Positions 35,568 through 51,739 of a DNA stretch of 64,000 nt are shown in pieces. This DNA is from a virus, in IMG/VR virus record IMGVR_UViG_3300031414_000008, positions 64,001-128,000 of that record; one strand, given 5' to 3'. Every line of letters begins with the position of its first letter. Within the stretch, counting starts at the first letter, position 1. The notes below the pieces were generated by a model that saw only the letters and a program-made list of their open reading frames with translations, was not told the origin of the DNA and did no database searches. The position numbers were made by a program, and so were the translations under genes.

Positions 35568-35568
35568 A

Positions 35569-35658: not shown

Positions 35659-35660
35659 TC

Positions 35661-35735: not shown

Positions 35736-35751
35736 ATTTAAGGGAGACATT

Positions 35752-36009: not shown

Positions 36010-36050
36010 CTTCGATAGAGTCCTGGCTCTCTAAAACCGGGCGGATAAAC

Positions 36051-36521: not shown

Positions 36522-36587
36522 TATTAGCGGTCAACATACCGGCCTGTCACGCCGGAGTCGCGGGTTCGAATCCCGCTAGCCTCGCCA
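36512..36587 (+). tRNA. tRNA-Asp(GTC)
   Basis: loop CTGTCAC, CCA; overlaps the endonuclease V stop codon. Confidence 0.93.
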
Positions 36588-36893: not shown

Positions 36894-36978
36894 GGAAGAG
36901 TGGCGGAGAGGTAACGCAGCACCCTGCTAAGGTGTGGTCCGCAAGGGCCCCTGGGTTCGAATCCCAGCTCTTCCGCCA
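36894..36978 (+). tRNA. tRNA-Ser(GCT)
   Basis: loop CTGCTAA, variable arm, CCA. Confidence 0.9.
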
Positions 36979-36990
36979 TAAGAGGTGACT

Positions 36991-37500
36991 ATGCTCGAAC
37001 ATCTCAAGTCCCGTTATTACGACCCCGAACGCTACCCCACTCAGTGGATCACCGAAGACCGTCTCACGGTTCCTCTGCACGATTTCGGCGGTGTGATGCG
37101 AGGCTTTCTGCAGTACACGCCGGCGGCACCCAAGAAGGGTCCGTACCCGCCTGATCTGAAGTATTTCCCACTCTGTCCGTATTCGCATCGCCAGTTTGTC
37201 TGGGGCCTGGAACTCCCAGTCCGCGGCCACACGGTCTTCCTCACCGAATCGATCTTCAAGGCGGCCGCCCTGCACTCCGTCGGCGCCAATGCCTGGTCGA
37301 TCAACGGTTCAGACATCCACTCGACGCTCCGTCACCAAATGGATCTCCTCCCGTACCGGTTCATCTGCTGCGGCGACCAGGACAAACCCGGCGTGAAGTT
37401 TGCCCGAAATTTCCGTTACGGTTACGTCGGACCAGACTTGGACGAGCAGACGCCCGAGCAGCTCAAGCGAATCGTGGATTATTACGGAGCCCTTGACTAA
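36991..37500 (+). CDS. TOPRIM-domain (primase-like) protein
   Basis: VFLTESIFKA and CGDQDKPG TOPRIM-like acidic motifs. Confidence 0.65.
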   Translation: MLEHLKSRYYDPERYPTQWITEDRLTVPLHDFGGVMRGFLQYTPAAPKKGPYPPDLKYFPLCPYSHRQFVWGLELPVRGHTVFLTESIFKAAALHSVGANAWSINGSDIHSTLRHQMDLLPYRFICCGDQDKPGVKFARNFRYGYVGPDLDEQTPEQLKRIVDYYGALD

Positions 37501-37522
37501 CCCTATTGGCCTGTGCCATACT
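37493..37522 (+). promoter_or_regulatory. sigma70-type promoter for tRNA cluster
   Basis: TTGACT-18-CATACT. Confidence 0.5.
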
Positions 37523-37531
37523 GCAGGCCTT

Positions 37532-37619
37532 GGGGAGTTAGACCGTAGTTGGTAGCGGGGCAGACTGTAAATCTGCTGCTCATAGAGCTCGGGTGGTTCG
37601 ACTCCATCACTCCCCACCA
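37532..37619 (+). tRNA. tRNA-Tyr(GTA)
   Basis: loop CTGTAAA, variable arm, CCA. Confidence 0.93.
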
Positions 37620-37620
37620 C

Positions 37621-37697
37621 GCAGCTGTAGCTCAGACGGTTAGAGCGCCGGTTTGAAAATCCGGAGGTCGATTGTTCAACTCAATCCGGCTGCACCA
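37621..37697 (+). tRNA. tRNA-Phe(GAA)
   Basis: loop TTGAAAA, CCA. Confidence 0.88.
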
Positions 37698-37703
37698 CTC
37701 AAT

Positions 37704-37779
37704 TGGGGTTTCGCCAAGTTGGTTAAGGCCCGGGGCTTTGATCCCCGTATCACAGGTTCGAATCCTGTAACCCCTGCCA
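37704..37779 (+). tRNA. tRNA-Gln(TTG)
   Basis: loop CTTTGAT, CCA. Confidence 0.92.
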
Positions 37780-37791
37780 CTGAGGTTCACT

Positions 37792-37974
37792 ATGGACTGG
37801 AATCAAGCTTCTTTTTTAGCTCTCTCATTAACTGGTTTAATCATCATGGCTTGGGGCTCTTTCGGCGTCTGGCTTCTCTGTGCTTTCATGAGCGTGACTC
37901 GTAAAATGATCCTCCTGCCGATCGGCATGGGTTCACTCGTCGTCTTCACCGCTATCAAGTTCTTCGGAGGCTGA
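37792..37974 (+). CDS. small membrane protein
   Basis: hydrophobic 60 aa ORF. Confidence 0.5.
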   Translation: MDWNQASFLALSLTGLIIMAWGSFGVWLLCAFMSVTRKMILLPIGMGSLVVFTAIKFFGG

Positions 37975-38172
37975 ATGTTCTTTGCGATACTCGGTTGGCT
38001 CATTCTCATGGTGCTGTCCATTGGTTTCATGATTGGCGGCCCCATAGCGGTCATCGTTGCGGTGGCGTTCTCCGGAGAACGACCGTGGCCTGCCATCATT
38101 CCATTCGGTCTCGGTGCGTTCTTCATCTACCTTCTGTGCACGCACGCCCCTTTCCATATCGTCTTCTCGTGA
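37975..38172 (+). CDS. small membrane protein
   Basis: hydrophobic 65 aa ORF. Confidence 0.5.
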   Translation: MFFAILGWLILMVLSIGFMIGGPIAVIVAVAFSGERPWPAIIPFGLGAFFIYLLCTHAPFHIVFS

Positions 38173-38193
38173 TGGTATAAGTAAGGTGTAGCA

Positions 38194-38264
38194 AGACAGA
38201 TAGTTATAGTTGGTGAAAACGCATCCATTTCGATGAGTCGGGGGTTCGAGTCCCCCTCTGTTTA
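38194..38264 (+). ncRNA. tRNA-like RNA with aberrant anticodon arm
   Basis: AGACAGA/TCTGTTT acceptor, GGGGG-TTCGAGT-CCCCC T arm, CATC-CATTTC-GATG arm, no CCA. Confidence 0.65.
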
Positions 38265-38296
38265 GACGGTAAAATCTCCTTATTAGGAGAGCCACT

Positions 38297-39067
38297 ATGC
38301 AAAAACAATCATCTTTTATCTTCACGGCACTCGGTGGTCACGTTCTCCAGAACATTGCCGGTGCCAAGCTCGTAAAGTCTAAGGGTTTCCTCGAAGGGAC
38401 GGCGAAAGCCCTCCTCTCGGGAACACTTGCCCGTAATGCCCGACAGGGTACTCTGAAGGAAGGTCTGAAGTCGGCGGTGACGTCGGTGGCAGCACCTGAA
38501 GCTATCATGGCTCAGCGTCGTGCCTACGAGGCCGGGCGTTCACTCTACTCCCGTGCTCGTGCTCTGGGCGTGGATCCGAACAAGCTTACCAAACGTGATG
38601 CGGCGAAGCTCCGTATGGTGGCAGAAGGTCGTCTTCCGGATAAGCAGAAGACGACCCTGACTGAGAAGGCCCGGAGCATGATCGGTGGGAACACCCTTCC
38701 GCCGAAGACGATCAAGGCTGACATGATCAAGGAAGTAACGGAACGTCCGGTCGGTAAGCTTGGCCCTCACTCATCTATTGCGACGATCGGTGCGAACACG
38801 GCCGCGACAGTCCTCGAGCCAGGGGTTGGTCTGCTGAACGCCGCGAAGTTCGGTACCGAATCCAAGGCCTTCCAGAACACTGCTCTGGGCCGTTACGTTG
38901 AGAAGAACTTTGTTCACAAGCCACTCTCCGGGGCTTTCAAGTCCGGTGCTGAAGGTCAGGCCATGAACAAGCTCAAGAGCTTCGGCTACACGTACGGCGT
39001 CAACGGTGCAATCGGTAAAGCCATCGAGGGCGCCCACAAAGCCGGTACTAAAATGCCTAAGAAATAA
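38297..39067 (+). CDS. basic Ala/Gly/Lys-rich protein (candidate virion-internal)
   Basis: starts MQKQSS; composition like downstream KxA proteins. Confidence 0.6.
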
Positions 39068-39192
39068 GGTATAAGTACTGTGTAAAAGAGGAGTATTATC
39101 ATGGCAGGTTGGACACTAATCGTAGTATGTGCACTCGTGGCATACTGGATGTGGAATCAGTAAGGAGCTTCGGCTCCTTTTTAGGAGACGCT

Positions 39193-39336
39193 ATGTACAA
39201 GCACAATCGCGGAGTGATCAAGGAGAGTGCCGTGAAGGCCATTCTCCAAGATCCTCTTTTTAGCCAGAAAGTGGAAAAGCCCAAGAAGGGCAAGGGCTCT
39301 TACCGTCGGGTTAAAGCGGTAAAGGCTTACCTTTAA
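39193..39336 (+). CDS. arfA: alternative ribosome-rescue factor ArfA, short form (47 aa)
   Basis: [38 protein letters not shown] aligns with E. coli ArfA [36 protein letters not shown]; AGGAG RBS. Confidence 0.92.
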
Positions 39337-39481
39337 ACTTAATCACCCGGGTGGGGCTCAGGTACTTCTTCGCCTTCGCGGCTAGAGTCCCCACCGAACC
39401 TTCACGAATCGCCTTCGGCCCGGGCTTCCGGGAGTTGGCGGCAATGCTGTAGTTGCTGGCAAATCTTGCTGGATTCTCCAT
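39311..39481 (-). CDS. possible small basic protein, antisense
   Basis: GGAGGT RBS 4 nt before ATG on the minus strand; 56 aa. Confidence 0.4.
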
Positions 39482-39545
39482 ACGTACCTCCAAATTGATT
39501 TTATCCCGTTCTCCCTGTATAGTCGAGGAAAACAGGAGACTCCCT

Positions 39546-40025
39546 ATGAACTACTACGTAAGTGCCTTCTCTTGGCGTAACCTCCCCAAGTTCCCGATCG
39601 ACATCGAAGACTTCACTCAGTTCCATCCGTGCTACGACCTCCTCGAAGAGAAGCTGCGGGAGAATCCCAACGCGTACTTCACCATCCAGATCACCCTGGA
39701 GGAGGAAAACCCTGAGGACGATCAACAGTTTATCATCCAGTACCGCTACGCCGAACCCGGTAAAATCAATGCCATCCTATGCAATGACAAGGAGCAGTGT
39801 CTGCACGACAACTACCTCCTGTTCATTACAGCGGAGCACAAACTTAAAGGTGTGCCAATTGACGCCCAGGCTGAAGAAGATCCCGAAGACATTGTTAAAA
39901 TCATCTTAGAATATGGCGGACACATCGCCCAAGGCATCCAGTGGGCCGCCTTCCTTCTACGGGAGAACGGTGAGCGGGGCCTTACTCAGTATTTCGATGA
40001 TTTACCAACACAGGAGCTCCACTAA
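39546..40025 (+). CDS. acidic hypothetical protein
   Basis: AGGAG RBS; TTGATT..TATAGT upstream. Confidence 0.6.
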   Translation: MNYYVSAFSWRNLPKFPIDIEDFTQFHPCYDLLEEKLRENPNAYFTIQITLEEENPEDDQQFIIQYRYAEPGKINAILCNDKEQCLHDNYLLFITAEHKLKGVPIDAQAEEDPEDIVKIILEYGGHIAQGIQWAAFLLRENGERGLTQYFDDLPTQELH

Positions 40026-41830
40026 TGACTGAAAGCACGAAGACGCTGAACTCCACGGCGTCTACTCTCAAGAAGAACCCTGGACGCATTGGCCGATTGG
40101 TCAAGGCAGCCAAGCTTCTGATCGTGCCTCCTAAACAGTACGCCACCGGTAAGTCCAAAGAGTTGCTCGAAGCAGCTGTCGCTAAGCTCAAGGCCAAGCG
40201 GGGACTTAACGGGGTCGTCGGGGAAGGTGCGGGTCCGTTCTCGGACAAAGCCCTGCAGAAATCTGCAGCGGATGAAGGCAAGACGATGGTCGCAGGTACC
40301 GCAGCCGGTGCCTTGACCGCTAACGCTATCGCCGGACCGATTCGTTCAGCGAAGGCGGATAGTCATCTCAGCCGTATGCATAAGACTAAACGTGACAAAG
40401 ACTTCAAGAAGGTCCTTGCCGGCAAGATGCCGAAGCGGGATACCTTGAAGTTCGATGATACTGCAGGTCGCCGTATCGGTAAGGTTCTAAAGAAGAGCGT
40501 CCGGTACACTACCGGTAAGGGTGCGGCAGCAGGTGCAGTACTGACGGGAGCCGCGTTGCTCGGCCGTCAAATGAAAAAAGAGGCTAGCATGAACAAAGAA
40601 GCAGTAGACAAATCAACGAAGGACAAGGCCCTGGCGGCTTCGGCAGTCGGTTCCGGTGCGGCACTGGGAGGCGTACTGACTCATGACGCGAAGAAGTCTC
40701 GTGTGGCTTCCCGCCTGGGCACTAAGGGTGCGTACAAGCACATGGCCAATCCTTCGGTAGAGGGTGCAGCGAAGCGTCTGGCGGACTCTGCCAAGACGAT
40801 GCGTCGTATGGGTAAACCACTGAAGCGTGCTGGCATTAAGGGTGCGATCGTGGGTGGTCTGGCCGGTGCCGCACTGGGTGCCGCTCACCTGAAGAAGGAA
40901 GCGGAAGTCGTCGATATGGCGGCTGAACGTAACAAGCGTGCCGCTGACAAGATGTCTCAGTCACAGAAGACCTTCAAAGCGATGAAGGGTCGTGGCGAAG
41001 CCGCTAAGAAGCTGGCCAGTAAAGCTAAGCTGAAAGGTGCGGGTAAGCTCGGTCTGGCTGCCGCTGCAGGCGCTGCAGTTGGTGCTGCAGTAGCTGGCCA
41101 CAAGAAAGAAGCAGGCATCCTGAACTCCCGTACCGTTCAGCAACGTGGTGCCCAAGCCCTCAAGGTTCTGAAGCGTGCCCAGAGCATTGAGAAAGTCAAA
41201 GTGGATCGTCTCAAGAGTCACGCTAAGAAAGGCCTGGTAGGCGGTGCGATCGTCGCTGGCGGCGTTGCCGTGACCAAGAAAAATGAGGAGCTGAAGAAGC
41301 AAGCCGCTGCCCTCGTGATCAAGGACGGCAAGAAGTACCGTAAGGGTACTGTGGGTTCAGCAGCTTCTAAGGTTGCGACCGCGGCAGGTGTCGTCTCTGC
41401 TCTGCGTGGGCGTAACCTCAAGGGTGTCGCGAAGTCTGTCCTGAAGGGTGGAGCACTGGGTGGTGCCTACGGTACCGTTCGTGGCGCTAACCGTCTGCGT
41501 AAAGGCGAAGTGTCTCTGTCCAAGGACGAGATGAAGAAGCTGACCAAGAAGGCCGCCGAGCTGCTACACCACAATGGTCAAGACATTCGTCGTGGAACCA
41601 TCGGTTCTGCAGCCGGTAAGATGGCCCTGACCGGTGCTGGCCTCGGTGCCCTGGCGGGTCTGGCGGCAGGTCCGGTCGGGATGGTTGCCGGTGGTGCTAT
41701 CGGCGGATTTAACGGTGCGGTCACCGGCGGTCTGTACGGTATTGCCCGTGGCGCTCTGCGTTCACAGGACGGGGAAGTCTCAATGGATCCAACGAAGTTC
41801 GATAAACTGAAGGCGAAGGTATCTAAATGA
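40025..41830 (+). CDS. modular basic Gly/Ala-rich protein with repeated KKxA junctions
   Basis: KKEAS, KKEAE, KKEAG, KKQAA and KKAAE separate Gly/Ala hydrophobic modules. Confidence 0.7.
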   Translation: MTESTKTLNSTASTLKKNPGRIGRLVKAAKLLIVPPKQYATGKSKELLEAAVAKLKAKRGLNGVVGEGAGPFSDKALQKSAADEGKTMVAGTAAGALTANAIAGPIRSAKADSHLSRMHKTKRDKDFKKVLAGKMPKRDTLKFDDTAGRRIGKVLKKSVRYTTGKGAAAGAVLTGAALLGRQMKKEASMNKEAVDKSTKDKALAASAVGSGAALGGVLTHDAKKSRVASRLGTKGAYKHMANPSVEGAAKRLADSAKTMRRMGKPLKRAGIKGAIVGGLAGAALGAAHLKKEAEVVDMAAERNKRAADKMSQSQKTFKAMKGRGEAAKKLASKAKLKGAGKLGLAAAAGAAVGAAVAGHKKEAGILNSRTVQQRGAQALKVLKRAQSIEKVKVDRLKSHAKKGLVGGAIVAGGVAVTKKNEELKKQAAALVIKDGKKYRKGTVGSAASKVATAAGVVSALRGRNLKGVAKSVLKGGALGGAYGTVRGANRLRKGEVSLSKDEMKKLTKKAAELLHHNGQDIRRGTIGSAAGKMALTGAGLGALAGLAAGPVGMVAGGAIGGFNGAVTGGLYGIARGALRSQDGEVSMDPTKFDKLKAKVSK

Positions 41831-42498
41831 GTAAAGAAAGCGCCAAGAACGAAGGACGTAAATCGGCGCTAGCAGGGGCGGCTTCGGCCGTCCTCGCTTC
41901 CAAGTCGTCGAAGAACATCCTCGGCTATGAGAAAGTTCACCACGGCACCCAAACACTCTCCGCAGCACAGAGTATTCGGGAGAAAGGAATTCTCAAGCGT
42001 CATTCCGGGTCGGGGATAGCTAAAGATGACATTGCCCTAGGTCATTTATCGCCGAAAGAGGCTAAAGGTAAGGTTTACACGAGTACGAGCAAACATCTTG
42101 CGGACGCTCATCGTCCTAAGATGGGGGCTATGCACATGGGTGATCGAGTGACGGCCCGTATGCCATACCGAGCGAAGCACCGTTTGGGAGAAGACACCGT
42201 ATTCGCCAATGCTGCCAAAGGTAAGATCGGAGATCCTTCCGATGTAGCCCCTGCTAAGCGAGCGTTGAAGACACTTCGTATTTACAAGCATGACGTGAAA
42301 CCCCGTTTCATCGTCGGTGGTGCACACGATGGCGGTCGTCGTCAGTTCGCAACCAAGGGTAACATGCGTCGGTACCTCTCCCAGGCCGGCGGTAAAGCCC
42401 GTTTCGCTAAGGGTGTTGCCCAGGCAGCCGGTGCGGTCGGTGGCGGCATGTACGCCGTGGCCAAAGCGATCCAAGCCCGGAAGGAGGCGAAGAAATGA
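41827..42498 (+). CDS. basic protein with ADP-ribosyltransferase-like HGT motif
   Basis: HHGT...A.SI.EKGI...G...VYTS....A. Confidence 0.55.
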   Translation: MSKESAKNEGRKSALAGAASAVLASKSSKNILGYEKVHHGTQTLSAAQSIREKGILKRHSGSGIAKDDIALGHLSPKEAKGKVYTSTSKHLADAHRPKMGAMHMGDRVTARMPYRAKHRLGEDTVFANAAKGKIGDPSDVAPAKRALKTLRIYKHDVKPRFIVGGAHDGGRRQFATKGNMRRYLSQAGGKARFAKGVAQAAGAVGGGMYAVAKAIQARKEAKK

Positions 42499-42881
42499 GT
42501 TTGTACAAGTACGCCAAGACCTTGAACGAAATCAAAGAGGAACGTTCTCACCGTAACCGCCGTCTGAAGGCGGCCCCGTACATCGTAGGCGGACTGGCGG
42601 GGGCGGCTTCGATCGCCCACGACACGACCCGCAAGACCGGAGCCTCACAGATGAAGTGGAAAGGCGGGAAGCTGACGAAGGTTCCTCAGCGTCAGTACCA
42701 CTTGCTGCGTAACGGCGGTGCATCCATCGGTAAACACGTGGAGAACTCCGTGATGCGTGCAGCACCTAAGGCCGCTGCTGCCGGTTTCCTGACAGCCGGT
42801 GCCGGCGCTCTGTATAAGTACGTTGCAGAGGAACGAGCTCGTCGTCAAGAGAAAGCACGACGTGCGGAACTCGCTAAATAA
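42495..42881 (+). CDS. basic KxA-motif protein
   Basis: starts MSLYKYAK; Gly/Ala hydrophobic segments. Confidence 0.65.
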   Translation: MSLYKYAKTLNEIKEERSHRNRRLKAAPYIVGGLAGAASIAHDTTRKTGASQMKWKGGKLTKVPQRQYHLLRNGGASIGKHVENSVMRAAPKAAAAGFLTAGAGALYKYVAEERARRQEKARRAELAK

Positions 42882-43101
42882 GGCCCTTCGGGGCCTTTTT
42901 AGTGGTATAAGTATAGTGGAGGTAACCTATGTTACTAGAAAAACTGCTCGACCTGTATAACCGGGGTGATCTCGAGGCTCTTCGACAGGCTGTCATTGAG
43001 AATCAAGACACACTGACTTTCAACGCAAATCTCTTGGTATCTTACCCAGACTTCACGGCCCAGTGCCTTAAAATTCTGGAAGAAACCAAGAGGAATTCTT
43101 C

Positions 43102-43872
43102 ATGATCAAGTACGCGTATAAACTGGCGGATTTCGCCAAAGGGATCAAAGCAGTCCGGGCCAAGGGATTGGTCCACCGCCGCAACCTCACCGTCCACATG
43201 GACCCGGATGCCGCAAAGGTAACGATGCCGACCACTAAGGGCCAGGGTAACGGTCCGATGGCGTTAACCATGCACGGCAAAGACATCTCCGGTCACCGAG
43301 AGGGCTGGCATGTTGACTTAAATTCTCACCGGAAGGGTATCTACGCCCGCGGTCAGGCCCATAACGTTCTGAACGATGTCCACAAATCGATGCACCCTCA
43401 CGGCATTGACAGTAAGAGTATGAGCGGGGGCGACCGTAAGGCGGCCAACCACATCGTTCTTCGTCATGAAATGGATGAGCACCGTGCCTTGAAAGACTTG
43501 CGGAAGCACCACAAGAACAACAACGGTAGCTCCTTCGTCGGAACCTCTCACTTGGCCCCGTCTGTTCTGCTCCGTGAGAGCAACAACGTGGCTAAGCTCG
43601 GGGCCGGTACCCGCAGTAAAGAACTCTACCACAAGGCTAAAGGTCTCATGGTTTCAACGCGTCGTTCAAGCGGAGAAGCCGATCACCTGAAAGGTATGAT
43701 CGAGAGTTACCAGGCACCGAAGCGTAAGAACGTGGTGTTCAAGAACCATAAGCCAACTCACGCTCCGATGAACTATGAGTATGGTAAGACTCGACTCTCC
43801 CGTCACGCGATCAAGGCGATGGACAAGGCGTCGATCCGTCAAGGCCACACCGTGGTCGTGCCGAAGAGTTGA
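43102..43872 (+). CDS. basic His-rich KxA-motif protein
   Basis: starts MIKYAY; RHEMDEH..SHL..LLRESNNV. Confidence 0.6.
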   Translation: MIKYAYKLADFAKGIKAVRAKGLVHRRNLTVHMDPDAAKVTMPTTKGQGNGPMALTMHGKDISGHREGWHVDLNSHRKGIYARGQAHNVLNDVHKSMHPHGIDSKSMSGGDRKAANHIVLRHEMDEHRALKDLRKHHKNNNGSSFVGTSHLAPSVLLRESNNVAKLGAGTRSKELYHKAKGLMVSTRRSSGEADHLKGMIESYQAPKRKNVVFKNHKPTHAPMNYEYGKTRLSRHAIKAMDKASIRQGHTVVVPKS

Positions 43873-43924
43873 TCTACCGCTTTTTAGCTGGTAAGATCTT
43901 TCCGACTACTCACAGGAGAACACT

Positions 43925-44152
43925 ATGAAAGACCAACACACCAAGATTAAAGGCTATCGTGATCTGGACCAATGGGATATCGACACCATGAATCGCATCA
44001 AGGACGCCGGTAACGCACTGGGCGCTCTGATCGAAGACCTGCAGGCCCAAGAGGGTATCGATCAAGTCTTCCTGGCGACCGGTAAGGCCGACGTCCAGAA
44101 AGGTCTGGCGATGATCATCCGTTCGATTGCCCAACCGTCAACGTTCTGCTAA
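43925..44152 (+). CDS. acb2: anti-CBASS sponge protein Acb2 (T4 Vs.4-like)
   Basis: QHTKIKGYRDL...MNRIK...GKADVQKG..IIRSIAQP matches the Acb2 pattern. Confidence 0.92.
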   Translation: MKDQHTKIKGYRDLDQWDIDTMNRIKDAGNALGALIEDLQAQEGIDQVFLATGKADVQKGLAMIIRSIAQPSTFC

Positions 44153-44291
44153 TGTACGATTGGTTGGCGGTAATTATGCTCTACGTCTGCATGGGTACGA
44201 TGCTCTGTGCGGCGATGAGGGAATGTCAGAGGGCCGGGAAATCGGGACCCCTTATCGAATTCATTGGTAACTCATTCATTCCGTAAATCCT

Positions 44292-44314
44292 AAAGCTCCT
44301 TCGGGAGCTTTTTT
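44292..44314 (+). terminator. intrinsic terminator
   Basis: AAAGCTCC-TTCG-GGAGCTTTTTT. Confidence 0.85.
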
Positions 44315-44325
44315 ACATTTAGGGG

Positions 44326-44355
44326 TTGACACCCTGTTCGCCACTCGGTTATGAT
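44326..44355 (+). promoter_or_regulatory. sigma70-type promoter
   Basis: TTGACA-18-TATGAT. Confidence 0.65.
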
Positions 44356-44359
44356 CAGT

Positions 44360-44520
44360 CCATCGCTCCCTGGTACGTGGGAGGATAAAACGGCAGCGGA
44401 TCTCACTGGGCCCTCTCTTTGAAGATCACTGATAACGTACAAGGCAGGGTTTTTCATAGGGTTGCTCCCTCGGTTTTTACCCCTTAGCCGGTAGTCACGC
44501 CGGTGCCGACAGAGTGATGG
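44360..44520 (+). ncRNA. candidate ~160 nt closed-stem RNA upstream of tRNA-Asn
   Basis: CCATCGCT pairs with AGTGATGG; no ORF. Confidence 0.4.
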
Positions 44521-44523
44521 TGC

Positions 44524-44599
44524 GGTTCTGTAGCTCAGCGGTTAGAGCGCTCGCCTGTTAAGCGAGGGGTCGATGGTTCAAATCCATCCAGTTCCGCCA
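44524..44599 (+). tRNA. tRNA-Asn(GTT)
   Basis: loop CTGTTAA, CCA; two U.U mismatches in acceptor stem. Confidence 0.88.
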
Positions 44600-44622
44600 A
44601 ATATTTCAACCAGGAGAAGATA

Positions 44623-44925
44623 ATGGCACATATCGTTGGTCAACTTACTGCAGCAGAACCTAAGGGTCCTGCTTACACGCTGGAAAGTCTGGAGAACCAC
44701 GCGACTCACGTTCGCACAAACACTCTGGACATCAACGCGGGACTGCGTAAAGTCTTAACTCTTCTCCGCGGTGAGGAGCTCTGTGGTCAGGGACTCAGTG
44801 AATCCACCCCGGTCTGTGGCAAATTGGCAGAGATCTCGGTTATTCTGCAAGGCACTCGCAGCAATCAGGATGAAACCTTCCGATTGGTCGCTGAGTTGCA
44901 GAGTTTGTTAAATGTTGACGCCTGA
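44623..44925 (+). CDS. hypothetical protein
   Basis: 100 aa ORF, AGGAG RBS. Confidence 0.6.
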   Translation: MAHIVGQLTAAEPKGPAYTLESLENHATHVRTNTLDINAGLRKVLTLLRGEELCGQGLSESTPVCGKLAEISVILQGTRSNQDETFRLVAELQSLLNVDA

Positions 44926-44956
44926 ACAGAGTAGGGCGTACGAGAAGTTAAGCGTT

Positions 44957-45041
44957 GGGGCGGTGGCGGAATTGGCAGACGCACTGGATTTAGGTTCCAG
45001 CGGGGCAACCCGTGAGAGTTCAAGTCTCTCCCGCCCTACCA
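44957..45041 (+). tRNA. tRNA-Leu(TAG)
   Basis: loop TTTAGGT, variable arm, CCA. Confidence 0.93.
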
Positions 45042-45044
45042 AAG

Positions 45045-45128
45045 CCGAGAGTGGTGAAGTGGAAAACACAGGTGACTTAAAATCATCCGCTTAAATGCTC
45101 GAGGGTTCGAATCCCTCCTCTCGGACCA
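45045..45128 (+). tRNA. tRNA-Leu(TAA)
   Basis: loop CTTAAAA, variable arm, CCA. Confidence 0.9.
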
Positions 45129-45216
45129 AAGAGCTTATTTGCCCGCGTACGGTGAGGACGAAACCAGTTTACTGGGGCGTGCCAATTAACTACGGTGCGG
45201 GGCCAAATAAGCTTTT

Positions 45217-45292
45217 GCTTCAATAGCTCAGTTGGTAGAGCAACCGCCTTGTAAGCGGTAGGTCGTGGGTTCGAAGCCTACTTGGAGCACCA
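45217..45292 (+). tRNA. tRNA-Thr(TGT)
   Basis: loop CTTGTAA, CCA. Confidence 0.93.
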
Positions 45293-45431
45293 TGGACATA
45301 GTGAAAGACAGCCTAGTGAAAGACGGAAAGTTGATCGTCCACATAGGCCGAGAGGACATTGACGGGACACGTTTCTTCCTGTTAACGCCGGAGACGGCCG
45401 TCGAAGTCCGCAAGTTAATCGATAAGTTTCT

Positions 45432-45508
45432 GGATGGACAGGGAGAAGATACTGGGGCAGGCGCCAGCAAGGTATCTGAGTGAGGTTCGATTCCTTACAC
45501 ATCCACCA
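45432..45508 (+). ncRNA. tRNA-like RNA (acceptor, T arm and CCA; no D or anticodon cloverleaf)
   Basis: GGATG/CATCC-A-CCA, TGAGG-TTCGATT-CCTTA, internal AGATAC/GTATCT stem. Confidence 0.6.
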
Positions 45509-45509
45509 T

Positions 45510-45584
45510 GCATCACAAGTGTTGTCGGTGGCACAGCGTCCTTCCAAGTCGCAGGGACCGGTTCGAGACCGGTGTGATGCTCCA
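45510..45584 (+). tRNA. tRNA-Gly(TCC)
   Basis: loop CTTCCAA, CCA. Confidence 0.9.
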
Positions 45585-45648
45585 AATTAGTCTCCTAGCC
45601 AGGTAGTCCTGGTGAATTCCGGCAATGTAGTCGGAAGGGAGCACAAAC

Positions 45649-45724
45649 GGTAGTGTAGCTCAGTTGGCAGAGCGACTCCCTCATAAGGAGGAGGTCGGTG
45701 GTTCAATCCCACCCATTACCACCA
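45649..45724 (+). tRNA. tRNA-Met or Ile2 (CAT)
   Basis: loop CTCATAA, G1-C72, CCA. Confidence 0.88.
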
Positions 45725-45828
45725 GATAGTTGATGCAGTGCCCGTAATGGAGGTGATCACTATCTTGATGGTCCTAATGGACAAGTCCTGCAGTACCGCC
45801 GCGAGGCAGCACACAGGGGCGAACCAAT

Positions 45829-45903
45829 TGCGAGGTAGAGAAGCGGCATCTTGCCAGCCTCATAAGCTGGAGATCGGTGGTTCGAGTCCACCTCTCGCAT
45901 CCA
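45829..45903 (+). tRNA. tRNA-Met(CAT), possibly initiator-like
   Basis: loop CTCATAA, acceptor TGCGAGG, CCA. Confidence 0.85.
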
Positions 45904-45975
45904 ACAGATCAGCCGAACCGATGTACCATTAATAGTGCACTAAGTGCCTTAATGATCGTTTTATGGTACATCGGT

Positions 45976-46051
45976 GCGGCCGTATCCTAAGTGGCAAGGA
46001 CCCAGGTTGTGATCCTGGTCTACGTGGTTTCGATTACCACCGGTCGCCCCA
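45976..46051 (+). tRNA. tRNA-His(GTG)
   Basis: loop TTGTGAT, C73, CCA. Confidence 0.88.
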
Positions 46052-46206
46052 AACAGGAGATTCCTATGAAGCCTTACGGTTTGAAGCTCGGCGGAAACCC
46101 AGGTTGTAACTGCGGTCGATGTCGTCGTCGTGGTTGGCGTGAAGGCGCTACTCAGAATACAATCTGCAAGTCTTCCGCACGACAGGAAGCAAAGCGTATC
46201 ATCAAT

Positions 46207-46280
46207 GGCGAGTTGGCAGAGTGACTATGTGCTCGGTTGCAACCCGAGTTAGAGAGGTTAGAATCCTCTACTCGCCTCCA
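46207..46280 (+). tRNA. tRNA-Cys(GCA)
   Basis: loop TTGCAAC, U73, CCA; T loop TTAGAAT. Confidence 0.88.
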
Positions 46281-46287
46281 AATTAAG

Positions 46288-46316
46288 TTGACACTTCAGT
46301 ACATTCCTCGTACTAT
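46288..46316 (+). promoter_or_regulatory. sigma70-type promoter
   Basis: TTGACA-17-TACTAT. Confidence 0.7.
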
Positions 46317-46323
46317 TCTCTCT

Positions 46324-46397
46324 GGGGGCTTCGTCTAGTGGTAAGACAACAGCTTCCAAACCTGATAACCGGCGTTCGATTCGTCGAGCCCCTGCCA
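46324..46397 (+). tRNA. tRNA-Trp(CCA)
   Basis: loop TTCCAAA, G73, CCA; weak anticodon stem. Confidence 0.8.
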
Positions 46398-46753
46398 GAG
46401 AGAACACTATGCAAATCCTTAAAGCTGTAGACCTCCTGCATGATGCCGGAGCCATCACTACCGAATTTCATACTCAAGTTCATGCTGCGAGCAAGGACAA
46501 ACCGTCTTTGTACTTAACGCTCATCGTCAAGGTACTTGAGATCATCGTCAAAGTCGTGAAGTACCTCGCGGAGAAACGCAAATGAACTACGAACAGTTAA
46601 AGAAAGACGTCCACGCCATCTATTTAACCGGAGAGATTCCGCAGTGGGTGGCACTCTACGTCATGGGCTTGAAGCCTTCTAAGCGTTGGATCATCACGAA
46701 GCTCCACCTCGGGATCCAGTTCATCGTGAAGAAGATCCTGGAAGACATTAAGA

Positions 46754-47017
46754 ATGACCGTAAAGACTAATATTCGCGTCACACGGATCAAAAACAACTG
46801 GCATTCCCGTTTGTTCGTCAACGGGTTGCTGGTTGACGAGATGTCGTGTAAACTGAAAGAAGACATCGGTTGGTGTTGCCGTACGATGATGCGGTGGGCC
46901 GATAAGATGGGTAGGGGCAATGCTCATACCTCCAGTGCTCGACACCGCAATGTAGGCGGTCCTGTCGGGCAGGTGAAGTACCTAGGTAAATATATTACGG
47001 AGAAAATCATGCTGTAG
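46754..47017 (+). CDS. hypothetical protein, ends at the TAG shared with the Pth2-like frame
   Basis: 87 aa ORF. Confidence 0.6.
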   Translation: MTVKTNIRVTRIKNNWHSRLFVNGLLVDEMSCKLKEDIGWCCRTMMRWADKMGRGNAHTSSARHRNVGGPVGQVKYLGKYITEKIML

Positions 47018-47341
47018 AACAAACACTGGATTTACACTTTCGTTCGTTACGATCTGCCACTCGAGCAGATTCTCGTTCAGTCCAACCATGCCTCTCACGA
47101 AGGCGCCCTGAAGTACCCTTACACCTCCGCAGAACCGAACTCGCTGATCGTCATTGGCGTGAAGAACAAGGCCGCCCTCGAGAAGGCCCTGGATCGCTAC
47201 GCCCATTTTGACCCCACGCCTTTCTACGAACCCGACTGGGATTACGGCTTAACGGCCTTCACTACTCGTCCGGTCACGGCAGAAGAACGTGCAGAATTCC
47301 GCAAGTATCAGCTCTTCCGGGGGTCACATGTACGCAACTAA
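47009..47341 (+). CDS. peptidyl-tRNA hydrolase 2 (Pth2)-like protein with in-frame TAG at codon 3
   Basis: GGAG-6nt-ATG CTG TAG, then an open frame WIYTFVRYDL..VQSNHAS..LIVIGV..FYEPD..LTAFTTRP. Confidence 0.75.
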
Positions 47342-47864
47342 TCTTCCCGACCTCATCGCTCGGATGGAAGCCTGTGAGCAGACCTCCGGACTCTCCGTTC
47401 TGGAACACGGCCATATGGTCCACGAGAGCTACCTACAGCTCGTCCAAGAGCTCGAGCAAGGCGTTGGTCCGGTTACGCTCCAGAACCTCTGGGAGTGGCT
47501 TAGAGAGCGTCTGGTGAGCCCTGATGAAATCCGTACGTACCAGATCTACCACGACTGCGGTAAGCCCGTGTGTGCCCGCGATGGCCACTTCCCAGAGCAT
47601 GCAAAGCACTCGTGTAAGCAGTGGGCAGCGATCTACGGGAACGGGACAGTCTCCCGACTCATGGGTCTCGACATGTGCTTCCACTTAATGAACGCCGCCC
47701 AGGCTTCGACCTTCTGGAAGAACCCGCTCGCCCCTACGCTCTACGTCACGGCATGGGCCGAGATCCGAGCGAATGCCGGGATGTTCGGCGGTGAGGACTC
47801 CGTGTCATTCAAGAAGAAGCGTAAGCGCCTGGAGCGTGCCGGCCGTGCTCTAAAATTAGGGTGA
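47328..47864 (+). CDS. HD-domain phosphohydrolase-like protein
   Basis: LEHG..YHDCGKP..HFPEHA..S. Confidence 0.7.
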   Translation: MYATNLPDLIARMEACEQTSGLSVLEHGHMVHESYLQLVQELEQGVGPVTLQNLWEWLRERLVSPDEIRTYQIYHDCGKPVCARDGHFPEHAKHSCKQWAAIYGNGTVSRLMGLDMCFHLMNAAQASTFWKNPLAPTLYVTAWAEIRANAGMFGGEDSVSFKKKRKRLERAGRALKLG

Positions 47865-47876
47865 ACAGGAGGGACT

Positions 47877-48215
47877 ATGAACTTTTCACCTTTGATTCTT
47901 GAGAGTATGGGCTACCACTGGGTGACCCGGGCGCCGCTCGTGTACAACCGTGACACAGAGGTCATCACCGTTCCGGAAGGCTTCTCGACAGATCTTGCGT
48001 CCGTCCCGAAAGCACTCTGGGCCGTGATGCCACCGTTCGGCAACCATACGAAGGCAGCGGTGCTACACGACTACCTGTACGGTCAAGGCCTGCGTCCACG
48101 TAAGCAGTGCGATGAGATCTTCCTCGAAGCCATGGCTCTGATGGGCGTATCGAAGACGCGGCGTTACTTGATGTACTGGGCAGTTCGAGCCTTTGGTTCA
48201 AAAGCTTACGGATAA
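47877..48215 (+). CDS. DUF1353 family protein
   Basis: VPEGFSTDLASVP..PPFG..AAVLHDYLY..MYWAVRAFG. Confidence 0.85.
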   Translation: MNFSPLILESMGYHWVTRAPLVYNRDTEVITVPEGFSTDLASVPKALWAVMPPFGNHTKAAVLHDYLYGQGLRPRKQCDEIFLEAMALMGVSKTRRYLMYWAVRAFGSKAYG

Positions 48216-48217
48216 TG

Positions 48218-48246
48218 TTGACAGGTCAAGGACGACCTGATATCTT
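48218..48246 (+). promoter_or_regulatory. sigma70-type promoter upstream of the suppressor tRNA
   Basis: TTGACA-17-TATCTT, with a CAGGTC/GACCTG palindrome in the spacer. Confidence 0.6.
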
Positions 48247-48314
48247 TAGACCATCAATTGAGCCTCCAAGCGGTTGATGACCTCAAGGTCTGGGACGAGC
48301 ATCCCGGCCTTTCT

Positions 48315-48389
48315 GCCTGAGTAGCTGAGCGGTTTAGCAGGAGCCTCTAAAACTCTGGAACGTGGGTTCGAATCCCACCTCAGGCACCA
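48315..48389 (+). tRNA. amber suppressor tRNA (anticodon CTA)
   Basis: GCCTGAG/CTCAGGC-A-CCA, GGAGC-CTCTAAA-ACTCT, canonical T arm. Confidence 0.88.
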
Positions 48390-48391
48390 AA

Positions 48392-48593
48392 TCTAGTGTG
48401 TAGCTTAAATGTAAAAGCCTGGAGAATCTAAGTGCCCGTCATGGCGACGTGGAATACTGGACGAACTGCAGAGATGGTGACAACGAAATGTCATCCACAC
48501 GTGGCGGGTAGTTCAACGTAAGAACGCGAAAGTACCCAGGTCGTGGAGACTTGAGTATGGACGAAATGAGAGTGACGTAACACCTCTCCGCCA
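48392..48593 (+). ncRNA. candidate ~200 nt structured RNA with tRNA-like pieces
   Basis: two D-arm-like motifs, TGGCGG/CCGCCA pairing, GCCA end, no ORF. Confidence 0.4.
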
Positions 48594-48600
48594 GATATTC

Positions 48601-48678
48601 GGGTGTGTAGCTCAGCTGGTTAGCAGCATCGGACTTTTAATCCGAGGGTCGTAGGTTCGAAGCCTACCACACCCACCA
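48601..48678 (+). tRNA. tRNA-Lys(TTT)
   Basis: loop CTTTTAA, CCA. Confidence 0.93.
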
Positions 48679-48680
48679 CC

Positions 48681-48757
48681 GCACTTGTAGCTCAGTGGAT
48701 TAGAGCGCCCCGCTACGGACGGGGAGGTCGAGGGTTCGAATCCTTCCTGGTGCACCA
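48681..48757 (+). tRNA. tRNA-Arg(ACG)
   Basis: loop CTACGGA, CCA. Confidence 0.92.
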
Positions 48758-48818
48758 CTTCCCAATCTCCGGATTCCTTGGTATAATAAACATACCGTCC
48801 ACTACCCGGAGTTTTCCC

Positions 48819-49022
48819 ATGAAAGACAAATTCGGCAATCCGCTTAATCACGGAGACACTGTCGTCTATTTCTCAACGAATCTGTACCACACGGCCCATA
48901 TCGGGATTTACCAGGAGGAAGTTCCTGGGAAAGGCGTCCGCCTCATCTCTGAGAAGGGCAATCCGATTCACCGTCCGGCCAACACCCTTATCGCTTACAC
49001 AGGGATCAATCCTAACTCATGA
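48819..49022 (+). CDS. KOW/SH3-like small protein, paralog 1
   Basis: DKFGNPLNHGDTVVY. Confidence 0.65.
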   Translation: MKDKFGNPLNHGDTVVYFSTNLYHTAHIGIYQEEVPGKGVRLISEKGNPIHRPANTLIAYTGINPNS

Positions 49023-49206
49023 GATTCTACGCGAAGGACGAGCTCAAGCCGCTCATTCAGTACCGCGGAGAGTCTGATCATACGGAGTGGGCTCTGTGGA
49101 TCGGCGATATTTTTATCATCCAGAAAGACGGCGGACCTTTCCGCATGCAGCACCCGGACGATGACCTTGGTCTACCCGTCTTCAAACCCTATAAGGATCC
49201 CGTACT

Positions 49207-49473
49207 ATGATGTTCTCGTATCACCGTAACGGTAAAGAGGAGGATATCCTCGATAAGTCAGAGTTGGTCGTCGGCCAGACCTACAAGGGCCGCTGCCGGA
49301 ATGCCACTGAGGCAGTCTGGAACGGTAAGCAGTTCGAGTATCAACGTACGAAGTTCACCTTCACGTACACCGACTACATCAACCATCCCGAAGACGACAA
49401 CGGCTTCGACGTGTTCATGCCATTACGGAGGCTCAATGAAGGACTGTCAGGGGAAACCTGTCCATCTGAATGA
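49207..49473 (+). CDS. hypothetical protein
   Basis: 88 aa ORF. Confidence 0.55.
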   Translation: MMFSYHRNGKEEDILDKSELVVGQTYKGRCRNATEAVWNGKQFEYQRTKFTFTYTDYINHPEDDNGFDVFMPLRRLNEGLSGETCPSE

Positions 49474-49651
49474 CATCGTGGTGACCGGTTGGAACGGTGG
49501 GGACTTAGTCCCCGGCCGTGTTATCGCCATCGGTCCGAATCGCTGTCGTCTTTTAGTTGAAGAACCGCACGCGGCGAACCGCAAGGTTTACCGCCACAGC
49601 TCACAAGTGAGTCTCACAGGAGATAAATATGTTCCAGGACCGAGTGAATAA
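49436..49651 (+). CDS. KOW/SH3-like small protein, paralog 2
   Basis: DCQGKPVHLNDIVV. Confidence 0.6.
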   Translation: MKDCQGKPVHLNDIVVTGWNGGDLVPGRVIAIGPNRCRLLVEEPHAANRKVYRHSSQVSLTGDKYVPGPSE

Positions 49652-49823
49652 CCCGCTAACGATCGGTGATCGTGTAGCCTACAGTGTCAGTGACCGTTCG
49701 ACCCGTCTCGGCGTCGGCCACATTCAGTCATTCACCCCGAAGCGTGTCCGTGTGCAGGATGAACGCACCGGCTCCGTTTCAGATCATCAGGCAGACCGTA
49801 TCGTGAAGGTGCCTCATGCATAG
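49629..49823 (+). CDS. KOW/SH3-like small protein, paralog 3
   Basis: DRVNNPLTIGDRVAY..FTPKRVRV. Confidence 0.7.
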   Translation: MFQDRVNNPLTIGDRVAYSVSDRSTRLGVGHIQSFTPKRVRVQDERTGSVSDHQADRIVKVPHA

Positions 49824-50019
49824 TGATCAGCGGGGCATCCCGCTTGAGGTCGGTGACACCGTCGTGTGGTCTTCGATGGAAACGGCCGGTGTCGATATTG
49901 GAACAGTCGTCGGGTTCACCCCGAAGAAGATCCGTGTTCGCGGGCTTACTCAGCATCCAGATTATTCCCGGCTGAAAGAGCCGATGTATATACTCAAAGT
50001 GGAGCTTCCAAATGCATAA
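49816..50019 (+). CDS. KOW/SH3-like small protein, paralog 4
   Basis: DQRGIPLEVGDTVVW..FTPKKIRV. Confidence 0.7.
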   Translation: MHSDQRGIPLEVGDTVVWSSMETAGVDIGTVVGFTPKKIRVRGLTQHPDYSRLKEPMYILKVELPNA

Positions 50020-50200
50020 TGACGCAACGGGTAAACCCCTCGCCATCGGCGATAAGGTTGTGTACGCAGGCAGTTACCGTGCCAATCTCCGTCAGGGGTG
50101 GGTCTCGGACTTCACACCTAAGCGTGTGCGTATCACGTACGAAGAAAACGGTCAGGGCGGCGTGATCAAAGATCCTCTGCAAATCGCGAAGGTAGAATGA
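50012..50200 (+). CDS. KOW/SH3-like small protein, paralog 5
   Basis: DATGKPLAIGDKVVY..FTPKRVRI. Confidence 0.7.
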   Translation: MHNDATGKPLAIGDKVVYAGSYRANLRQGWVSDFTPKRVRITYEENGQGGVIKDPLQIAKVE

Positions 50201-50388
50201 TGGACTTCTTTGGACAAACTCTCTGTGTCGGCGATCGCGTCGCCTTCGTGACCAACAAGGGGTATCTCCGGACGGCTCAGATCCTCTCGTTCTCCGGTGT
50301 TGCCCCTCACCAAACGGTTCACCTCATGACTGACAAGAACCGTAAAACCCAAGCCCCTGCCAGCTACGTCATCAAGGAGCCACTATGA
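50197..50388 (+). CDS. KOW/SH3-like small protein, paralog 6
   Basis: DFFGQTLCVGDRVAF. Confidence 0.7.
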   Translation: MMDFFGQTLCVGDRVAFVTNKGYLRTAQILSFSGVAPHQTVHLMTDKNRKTQAPASYVIKEPL

Positions 50389-50606
50389 AAGTGGATGCCA
50401 TGGGTCAGACCCTTGAAGTCGGACAGGTAGTGCTCGTCCCGTCAGCGAAGGTCGGTAACGACTCCGGCCTACGGTTCGGCGTCATCAAGAGCATCGGAGA
50501 GGTTCGGGTCGTGATCACGCCACTGGCAGATCACCCTAAGCGTGTCCGTGCTCCTCGTAACGGCACCCAGCGTTACTTCGAGGACGTCCTCGTCGTTCAA
50601 CTGTAA
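50385..50606 (+). CDS. KOW/SH3-like small protein, paralog 7
   Basis: DAMGQTLEVGQVVLV. Confidence 0.7.
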   Translation: MKVDAMGQTLEVGQVVLVPSAKVGNDSGLRFGVIKSIGEVRVVITPLADHPKRVRAPRNGTQRYFEDVLVVQL

Positions 50607-50657
50607 GCCCGGCATGGGGTATAAGTAATGTGACAACAACCACAGGAGCTTTACCCC

Positions 50658-51398
50658 ATGCGTATTCAACTCAATCCTCAAGACCGTTTCATCTTCCACT
50701 CGGCTGTCGCCGCTCAGGACATCCAGTTCATCCTCAATGACCTGAACTCTCAGCTCTTCTACGACACGCCGAATTCGCTCTCGACGGGCATACTCGGCAA
50801 TCACTTACTCAACCCAATACCGATGGGTAACGGCAACCCGTATACTCTGCCGTACTCCACTATCGAGTTCGATACGTCCTTACTCCTCGATCCGACGATC
50901 ACGGTCCAGGCCGAGTCTCTCTTCGATGGCTTCCGCATCTTCTTCCTCCACTCCGATGGATTCTTCACGAACTGCACGCTGTACCTCGAATTCGATTCGT
51001 ACCTGACGCTTCGCAACTTCGGAATCTCATTCGGTCCGTTCGCGAAGTCTCACCCGCACGAACGTCGCATGGTCATGAATGCGGCCTTCATCGATCTGCC
51101 AACAATCCTCGGCTACATCGTGGATACCAACTCCCGTAACCGCATCCCTTTCACCCTCGGTGAACCGCGTCAGTACAACGTTCTGGATAATCACGATTCC
51201 CAACCGGTTCAGAATCTCGGCGACATCCGTCAGATCACGAACCCACGTGACAATCCGACCGGTATCACCAAGCGCCCTCATGAACGTGCAGGCCACACCC
51301 GCCAGTTAGCAGATGGCCGCATCATCGACGTTTCGCCGACCACGGTGCACCGCGATGACTTCGAAGGTGACGATCGTCCTAAAATTATCAAACACTAA
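50658..51398 (+). CDS. hypothetical protein with C-terminal HxRxGHxR motif
   Basis: PHERAGHTRQLADG; follows a GGTATAAGTA motif. Confidence 0.65.
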   Translation: MRIQLNPQDRFIFHSAVAAQDIQFILNDLNSQLFYDTPNSLSTGILGNHLLNPIPMGNGNPYTLPYSTIEFDTSLLLDPTITVQAESLFDGFRIFFLHSDGFFTNCTLYLEFDSYLTLRNFGISFGPFAKSHPHERRMVMNAAFIDLPTILGYIVDTNSRNRIPFTLGEPRQYNVLDNHDSQPVQNLGDIRQITNPRDNPTGITKRPHERAGHTRQLADGRIIDVSPTTVHRDDFEGDDRPKIIKH

Positions 51399-51434
51399 CT
51401 TGACAGTCTCTGGGCTCCGTGTAATACTGGGCCC

Positions 51435-51507
51435 AGATGATTAGCTCAGTTGGGAGAGCGGCTCCCTTACAAGGAGTAGGTCAACAGTTCGATCCTGTTA
51501 TCATCTA
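51435..51507 (+). tRNA. tRNA-Val(TAC), no encoded CCA
   Basis: loop CTTACAA. Confidence 0.88.
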
Positions 51508-51508
51508 T

Positions 51509-51584
51509 TGGGGAGTAGCTCAGTTGGTAGAGCGTTCGACCGATAATCGAAAGGTCGCGAGTTCGAGCCTCGCCTCTCCAACCA
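51509..51584 (+). tRNA. tRNA-Ile(GAT)
   Basis: loop CCGATAA (C33), CCA. Confidence 0.88.
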
Positions 51585-51586
51585 AT

Positions 51587-51661
51587 GCACGATTCGTCTA
51601 TCGGTTAGGACACCACTCTTTCACAGTGGGAAGAGGAGTTCAATTCTCCTATCGTGTACCA
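51587..51661 (+). tRNA. tRNA-Glu(TTC)
   Basis: loop CTTTCAC, CCA. Confidence 0.92.
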
Positions 51662-51663
51662 CC

Positions 51664-51739
51664 GCCTCGGTAACTCAGTTGGTAGAGTTCCCGACTCTTA
51701 ATCGGAGAGCCGCTGGTTCGAGTCCAGCCCGGGGCACCA
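51664..51739 (+). tRNA. tRNA-Lys(CTT)
   Basis: loop CTCTTAA, CCA. Confidence 0.92.

Follow-up and report, generated by a model that had tools for sequence, protein, structure and literature searches.

A putative amber-suppressor-dependent gate on a Pth2-like and HD-domain gene pair of large phages

How can a phage that uses the standard genetic code express a conserved gene whose third codon is an amber stop? The question is raised by a locus in a 64,000-nucleotide stretch of phage DNA (bases 64001-128000 of the 182,632-bp virus record IMGVR_UViG_3300031414_000008; G+C 54%), hereafter the window, where a Met-Leu-TAG leader is directly followed by an open reading frame (ORF) for a protein with the predicted Pth2 fold, then by an overlapping gene for an HD-domain protein and, farther downstream, by a tRNA gene with the anticodon CUA. 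We propose that, at this locus, a suppressor tRNA gates the translation of an operon of two genes whose products would act on tRNA 3' ends, a reading to which we assign, on comparative sequence evidence, a probability of roughly 0.8. Because this pairing of TAG and tRNA is retained by dozens of large phages that are only distantly related, the enzyme is probably made only upon override of the TAG. Full-text literature searches found no published description of the module.

The leader consists of ATG (47009-47011), CTG (47012-47014) and TAG (47015-47017); AAC AAA CAC TGG come next, and the frame stays open for 107 sense codons (47018-47338) up to a TAA (47339-47341). The earliest in-frame ATG, GTG or TTG past the TAG is the GTG at 47159, codon 51 from the leader ATG. 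The preliminary description of this DNA, made from the sequence alone, had reported the GGAG, the 6-nt spacer, ATG CTG TAG, the 107 open codons and the lack of an in-frame start before codon 51, and direct reading bears out each of these observations. Relatives carry a purine-rich Shine-Dalgarno (SD) sequence in the same position.

The nearest GenBank relative, Salmonella phage Arash (88% DNA identity), has an unrelated sequence upstream, yet ATCATGCTGTAGAACAAACACTGG is identical to the window there, and so is the tRNA. The same leader recurs in six independent assemblies of this clade (Arash and the IMG/VR loci L009-L013), so the TAG is not a sequencing error; in L010, the leader reads ATG TTA TAG, that is, leucine is retained via a two-base synonymous change. 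Homologues detected with tblastn, mostly unannotated or truncated, are present in Rak2-like and other jumbo phages, where the leaders of BF (ATG ACG CAC TAG), fHe-Yen9-04 (ATG TCT CAC TAG), GAP32 (ATG GCA CAA TAG), ME3 (ATG ACT TAG), RsoM2USA (ATG TTG TAG) and a 595-kb uncultured phage (LR756511; ATG ACT CAC TAG) all directly precede the conserved N-terminal strand.

A scan of IMG/VR with the family alignment, which is blind to the N-terminus because it was seeded on the internal motifs EPDWDYG and VQSNHA, returned 39 loci. Thirty of these start with ATG, one or two sense codons and TAG, and none has TAA or TGA in this place. The base after the leader TAG is a purine, mostly A, in every gated IMG/VR locus; a purine following UAG is a context known from classical work on suppression in E. 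coli to favour suppression over termination. Overall, the TAG is kept, with the ORF intact, in independent isolates and metagenomes that span 26-96% protein identity. According to the preliminary description, sense codons in the homologues would have marked the TAG as a sequencing error or a strain-specific nonsense mutation. The comparison came out the opposite way: homologues down to about 30% identity retain the early stop, which is always TAG, and the anticipated co-occurrence with a CUA tRNA, mostly on the same strand and less than 5 kb away, is seen in nearly all phages with the gated gene.

In a maximum-likelihood tree of 38 distinct sequences, 29 are gated, on both deep branches, and the ungated ones are scattered, so that the gate is either old and lost several times, or gained repeatedly. 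Cellular genome collections yielded only two copies. One, from a Paraburkholderia isolate, serves as a control: it begins with an ordinary ATG, lacks the TAG, and comes from a contig without tRNA(CUA). The other, on a 10.8-kb contig from a Gemmatales bin, begins with Met-Ser-Phe-Leu-TAG and is located immediately behind a tRNA(CUA). The apparent leader residue Q of the protein-database homologues P0002 and P0003 is the TAG codon as rendered by the database's gene caller, and for this reason glutamine was dropped as the candidate inserted residue. At L022 (9930-10010), an ATG is followed by nine codons and a TAG, a leader shifted by one base relative to the frame of the Pth2-like ORF, which lacks an in-frame start codon; there is no CUA tRNA among the 20 neighbouring tRNAs, and this may be a decayed or mis-assembled copy.

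Because the leaders carry TAG, the homologues are missing or truncated in annotations: nothing is annotated in BF and fHe-Yen9-04, the call is truncated in GAP32, and Arash has a 50-aa fragment. Such omissions by the annotators of four phages could be taken to mean that the gene is dead or misassembled, with the TAG being a nonsense mutation or a miscall in a decaying ORF. This explanation is refuted by the sharing of the TAG across 26-96% protein identity, the intact ORF and the excess of synonymous over non-synonymous changes, and we consider it practically excluded. Indeed, in codons 1-47 after the TAG, the window differs from L012 by 19 synonymous and 7 non-synonymous changes, and from L009 by 5 and 0, respectively; in the 60 nt that precede the leader, most members of the clade show no relationship to one another. 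Judged by these comparisons, the codons behind the TAG are under purifying selection and the stretch is probably translated. The annotation of Arash itself (L001, OQ632216; 1340-1836) is probably wrong: gp85 (88 aa) is called in a different frame across the first 31 codons of the Pth2-like ORF, and gp84, labelled 'peptidyl-tRNA hydrolase', is just the last 50 codons of that ORF.

The gating TAG also terminates an 87-aa ORF in the same frame upstream, and the preliminary description had accordingly envisaged a read-through fusion. The shared frame and stop are real, but the fusion does not withstand comparison with the relatives. Homologues of the upstream ORF are found only in L009, L010 and L013; the joint frame is common only to the window, L009 and L013, whereas in-frame stops close ahead of the leader interrupt it in L010 and L011; and in Arash an unrelated gene is located there. 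The fusion was therefore rejected as a designed product and appears to be a local accident.

The AlphaFold2 model of the 107 residues has a mean predicted local distance difference test score (pLDDT) of 89 and a predicted template modelling score of 0.83. Residues 4-10, with pLDDT above 90, form the first strand of the central sheet and precede any canonical start; a start at codon 51 would therefore remove half of the fold. The top 13 Foldseek matches are all Pth2 or Atu0240 (probability 1.0, template modelling (TM) score about 0.7, over nearly the whole length). Structural alignment with VIA-align against archaeal and human Pth2 (PDB 3erj, 2zv3, 1q7s, 1wn2 and 1xty; identity 12-20%) gives Z 12.5-14.2 and a root-mean-square deviation of about 2 Å over 98-102 of the 107 residues, with the next unrelated match at Z 3.6. 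A search of the family profile against PDB retrieves one peptidyl-tRNA hydrolase chain (E 0.054), with the VQSxHA and DxGLT motifs aligned. From the structural matches together with this motif alignment, the predicted fold is that of Pth2, and the peptidyl-tRNA hydrolase activity is putative. The Pth2-like fold given in the preliminary description is thus upheld by AlphaFold2, Foldseek and VIA-align, but its activity as a peptidyl-tRNA hydrolase is uncertain, given the missing Pfam match and the Gln discussed below.

That description had the anatomy of the module right but was missing a partner, the HD-domain gene, which is located directly downstream of the Pth2-like gene in 28 loci. In Xanthomonas phage XacN1, the two are joined in a single 279-aa protein, with the HD domain ahead of the Pth2-like one. 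The metal-binding residues of the HD protein (H27, H75-D76, H91, D115 and H119; pattern H..HD..H..D..H) are invariant in 15 sequences, and its model (pLDDT 92) is an all-helical HD fold. In structure, the HD protein comes closest to the HD portion of class-II tRNA nucleotidyltransferases (3wfo-3wfs; probability 1.0, TM score 0.51-0.59) and next to other HD proteins, and the profile also matches the 3wfo-3wfs chains (E 0.019). As modelled, then, both proteins resemble enzymes of tRNA 3' ends, one having an ester hydrolase fold and the other the phosphohydrolase domain of CCA-adding enzymes. The gene overlap is conserved, with a GGAGG within the last codons of the Pth2-like gene, which suggests an operon with translational coupling.

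In other lineages, the HD gene itself carries a TAG: at codon 47 in Rak2-like phages, at codon 54 in L024-L028, and at codon 4 in L023, each time with G or A as the next base. L028 retains the TAG of the HD gene and lacks that of the Pth2-like gene; the window's clade shows the reverse. Since the HD gene is gated in other lineages, the module can be defined as tRNA(CUA), the Pth2-like gene and the HD gene, at least one of the two genes carrying TAG.

These TAGs bear on the possibility that the leader is a two-codon upstream ORF, after which ribosomes re-initiate at a non-canonical codon just downstream, so that no suppressor is needed. The TAG is indeed followed by ATT, ATC or GTT, all weak starts, in several relatives. 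In the window's clade, however, AAC AAA CAC TGG follow the TAG, and the first near-cognate codon is the ATT at codon 8. Furthermore, an upstream ORF could end in any stop, yet the 30-plus cases all have TAG, matching the CUA anticodon, and re-initiation past the TAGs at codons 47 and 54 of the HD gene would lose the first histidine of the HD motif. We regard re-initiation as quite improbable. A bar-like minigene is another option: drop-off at Met-Leu-stop would load the host Pth or sense the capacity for peptidyl-tRNA hydrolysis, and reading on into the long ORF would be secondary. The SD sequence, the AUG, one or two codons and the stop reproduce the layout of the lambda bar minigenes, and the downstream product has the Pth2 fold, but bar minigenes are free-standing and end in TAA or TGA, whereas the leaders described here end in TAG without exception and lead in frame into a conserved ORF that is subject to purifying selection. 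This makes the minigene explanation very improbable in our estimate.

The other half of the proposed gate is the suppressor tRNA. The preliminary description had placed a tRNA with a CTA anticodon and its own promoter 1.3 kb downstream; the tRNA is confirmed, with an Rfam score on par with those of the neighbouring tRNAs, and the promoter is a consensus match. The promoter-like stretch is identical in Arash, and so is the tRNA(CUA), which is labelled tRNA-Phe there (label unverified). ARAGORN finds tRNA(CUA) within 10 kb in 28 of the 30 gated IMG/VR loci, on the same strand in 27, either 100-750 nt upstream or 1.6-4.3 kb downstream. ME3 has an annotated tRNA(CUA) 450 nt upstream, LR756511 has one 8 kb upstream, and in RsoM2USA it is 13 kb away on the same strand. 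In the 20-kb neighbourhoods of L031-L033 and L045, the suppressor is the sole tRNA. The features of the locus in the window are collected in Table 1.

Table 1. Elements of the amber-gated locus, in window coordinates
Feature	Position	Strand	Basis or remark
Upstream 87-aa ORF, PHROG 12201, function unknown	46754-47017	+	Stop codon is the gating TAG, same frame; not part of the conserved module
Shine-Dalgarno GGAG	46999-47002	+	6 nt ahead of the leader ATG; direct reading
Leader Met-Leu-amber, ATG CTG TAG	47009-47017	+	Gate is TAG 47015-47017, next base A
Pth2-fold protein (predicted), 107 codons and TAA	47018-47341	+	AlphaFold2 pLDDT 89; Pth2 structures at Z 12.5-14.2
HD-domain partner gene, 178 aa	47328-47864	+	First 14 nt, from the ATG on, lie within the end of the Pth2-like gene; no TAG in the window's clade
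Sigma-70-like promoter match, TTGACA-17-TATCTT, with TG	48218-48246	+	About 70 nt before the tRNA; consensus match only
tRNA, anticodon CUA, amber suppressor, class I, CCA encoded	48315-48389	+	ARAGORN; Rfam tRNA model 61.7 bits versus cut-off 29

The suppressor tRNAs of the relatives have widely different acceptor stems and discriminator bases, and no isotype is assignable to them. Such diversity fits the prediction that any inserted amino acid would be tolerated, given that the gate occupies codon 3-4, where the N-terminus is unstructured and variable. Positions 7-65 of the window tRNA(CUA) are 87% identical to the tRNA-Sup of XacN1 (AP018399 36136-36195), and the tRNA is 85% identical to an unannotated stretch of Xoo-sp13; on these identities, one suppressor tRNA lineage seems to be common to very distant phages. 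The closest IMG/VR relative, L009, has an additional tRNA-like gene (15138-15216) between tRNA-Glu and tRNA-Lys, to which ARAGORN assigns the anticodon TTA (ochre type); this gene has no counterpart in the window.

Is the gated gene simply one example of a genome-wide reassignment of TAG (code 15)? The genome is not recoded and uses the standard code. A rough gene model under this code yields about 240 genes that cover 88% of the genome and end in TAA (151), TGA (75) or TAG (14). One hallmark of code 15, a phage-encoded tRNA with the CUA anticodon, is present; the other, in-frame TAG in many genes with TAG unused as a terminator, is not, there being one gated gene and 14 of the approximately 240 genes ending in TAG. 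Some six-frame ORFs do become longer when TAG is read as sense, but the gain is no greater than that from reading TAA or TGA as sense, which lengthens ORFs equally or more. No other gap or gene has a credible in-frame TAG, and scans of the genome for SD-ATG-x-TAG starts, TAG-bounded coding frames and uncalled gaps found no second amber-gated gene. Genome-wide reassignment is accordingly highly improbable as an explanation of this locus.

Two other candidates were rejected. The second copy of the nonamer ATGCTGTAG at 39444-39452 does not qualify as a gate because translation likely begins at a more distal ATG and the intervening stretch is not coding-like. An amber-containing arrest leader of the Pro-Pro or RAPP type was found neither near the module nor, in any credible form, elsewhere in the window. 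The ATGCTGTAG copy (window 39444-39455) immediately precedes a TTG-started 190-aa ORF (39453-40025), probably by chance.

All 25 tRNA genes of the 182.6-kb genome are located inside the window, on the + strand, in a 16-kb region (35491-51739) with small ORFs between them; apart from the CUA tRNA, their anticodons cover 19 amino acids, with CAT present in 2 of the 25. Within this region, a 156-aa ORF (36051-36518) gives a weak match to Endonuclease V (PF04493, E 5e-7, 30 bits versus a cut-off of 23.4). In a Pfam scan of ten neighbour genes, this Endonuclease V-like match was the only one, so that the scan offers no functional context. A DUF1353 gene (47877-48215; Pfam E 2e-31), labelled 'structural protein' in Arash, sits between the HD gene and tRNA(CUA); it is confined to the window's clade and is therefore outside the conserved module.

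Taking these observations together, the suppressor-dependent gate would probably operate as follows. Ribosomes would start at the ATG at 47009 behind GGAG, add leucine and then encounter the UAG at codon 3. If only release factor 1 (RF1) were there to read this codon, translation would terminate after the Met-Leu dipeptide, and no Pth2-like protein would be made. The tRNA(CUA), if expressed and charged by a host synthetase, would decode the UAG, which has A as the next base, and read-through would yield a 109-residue Pth2-fold protein. Ribosomes that end the first gene would probably feed the HD gene across the 14-nt overlap. With the gate and the overlap combined, the output of both enzymes would track the activity of the suppressor relative to RF1. 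The switch based on competition between the suppressor tRNA and RF1 that was put forward in the preliminary description is supported, the support being comparative in kind.

As for its purpose, the gate may tie a pair of enzymes that maintain tRNA ends, in dose or in timing, to suppressor activity, to control damage from read-through or as feedback on the suppressor; this is our best guess. The adjacency of the protein to tRNA(CUA) after loss of the TAG in L028, L042 and L043 is a hint that the target of the proteins may be the suppressor itself or what suppression brings about. A stronger version, a closed control circuit in which the enzymes act on the suppressor tRNA (by deacylating it or by trimming or repairing its 3' end) or on read-through products, so that suppression is held at a set level, would fit both this adjacency and the neighbourhoods with the suppressor as the only tRNA (L031-L033 and L045), but we deem it unlikely. 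Such a circuit would be a tRNA-based counterpart of RF2 autoregulation.

Several observations weigh against the proposed gate or parts of it. One complete IMG/VR genome of 357,873 bp (L018, 3300042923_000569) has TAG in both genes and no tRNA(CUA) among its 32 tRNA matches. Conversely, four ungated homologues (L028, L037, L042 and L043) are located near a tRNA(CUA), so that the gate alone does not account for the link between protein and tRNA. For the window tRNA(CUA), comparison by similarity with about 400 phage tRNAs gives no clear nearest isotype. As regards the proteins, Pfam PTH2 (PF01981) does not match the Pth2-like protein, for which Pfam has nothing at E <= 1, and the Pfam HD model does not match the partner protein. 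The catalytic residues of Sulfolobus Pth2 we take to be Lys18, Asp86 and Thr90; in the weak alignment to 24bt_A (E 0.054), the Asp and Thr of DxGLT are retained, and a conserved Gln occupies the place where the Lys would be, which makes the hydrolase activity uncertain. Finally, that the UAG is read through, that the two genes are translationally coupled, which reactions the proteins catalyse and what purpose they serve are all inferred, the read-through from comparison of genomes. In L018, the syntenic tRNA slot is occupied by a tRNA-Arg(CCG), and two 110-nt tRNA-like matches with insertions are also present.

Suppressor tRNAs are common in large phages with the standard code, and their role is an open question. 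The authors of the XacN1 study read through all 18 amber stops of that genome and found no target of its CUA suppressor tRNAs (PMC5852040); the phiKp24 paper and a 2026 survey of jumbo phages discuss suppressor tRNAs only generally or for recoded genomes. The module offers a concrete, conserved target, a gene pair that would be untranslatable without the tRNA. Standard annotation omits or truncates such genes. The module may also be a first step towards stop codon reassignment, as the minimal pair of tRNA and gated gene could seed full recoding of TAG. The idea is directly testable in a standard laboratory system because Arash, whose leader and tRNA are identical to those of the window, can be grown on S. 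Typhimurium ATCC 14028.

Among known systems, the recoded phages (crAss-like, Lak and others) likewise combine a phage tRNA(CUA) with a standard-code host, and in-frame TAG has been proposed to delay the translation of particular genes in them for as long as the suppressor is lacking (Borges et al., preprint, 10.1101/2021.08.26.457843). Recoding there involves many genes, chiefly for structure and lysis, whereas here the code is standard and a single gene is gated (one or two in relatives). In further contrast to the recoded phages, it is always the same tRNA-related pair that is affected, the TAG is usually codon 3-4, and the genes are linked to the tRNA. With regard to the protein itself, the fold and the VQSxHA and DxGLT motifs are shared with archaeal and eukaryotic Pth2, but the identity of 12-20%, the Gln in place of Lys and the pairing or fusion with an HD domain set it apart.

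The bacterial gene prfB, which encodes RF2, has an early in-frame UGA that is passed by a +1 frameshift and thereby senses its own product. The present locus is similar in that an early in-frame stop resides in a translation-related gene and expression would be set by competition at this stop. It differs in that the frame is unchanged, as the ORF continues directly after the TAG and no prfB-type frameshift site was found at the early stop, and in that the competitor would be a dedicated tRNA. With the lambda bar minigenes, the leader shares the sequence of SD, AUG, one or two codons and stop, as well as the link to peptidyl-tRNA hydrolase biology; unlike them, it is not free-standing, being followed by a conserved in-frame ORF of 107 codons, and a suppressor tRNA is involved. 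The proposed logic is also that of the synthetic amber-suppressor gates, in which the supD tRNA is combined with an amber-containing T7 RNA polymerase, and of other engineered suppressor tRNA circuits, where a gene bearing an amber codon is switched on solely by provision of a suppressor tRNA. Those gates were engineered, whereas the one described here would be natural, ancient and conserved across many phage lineages.
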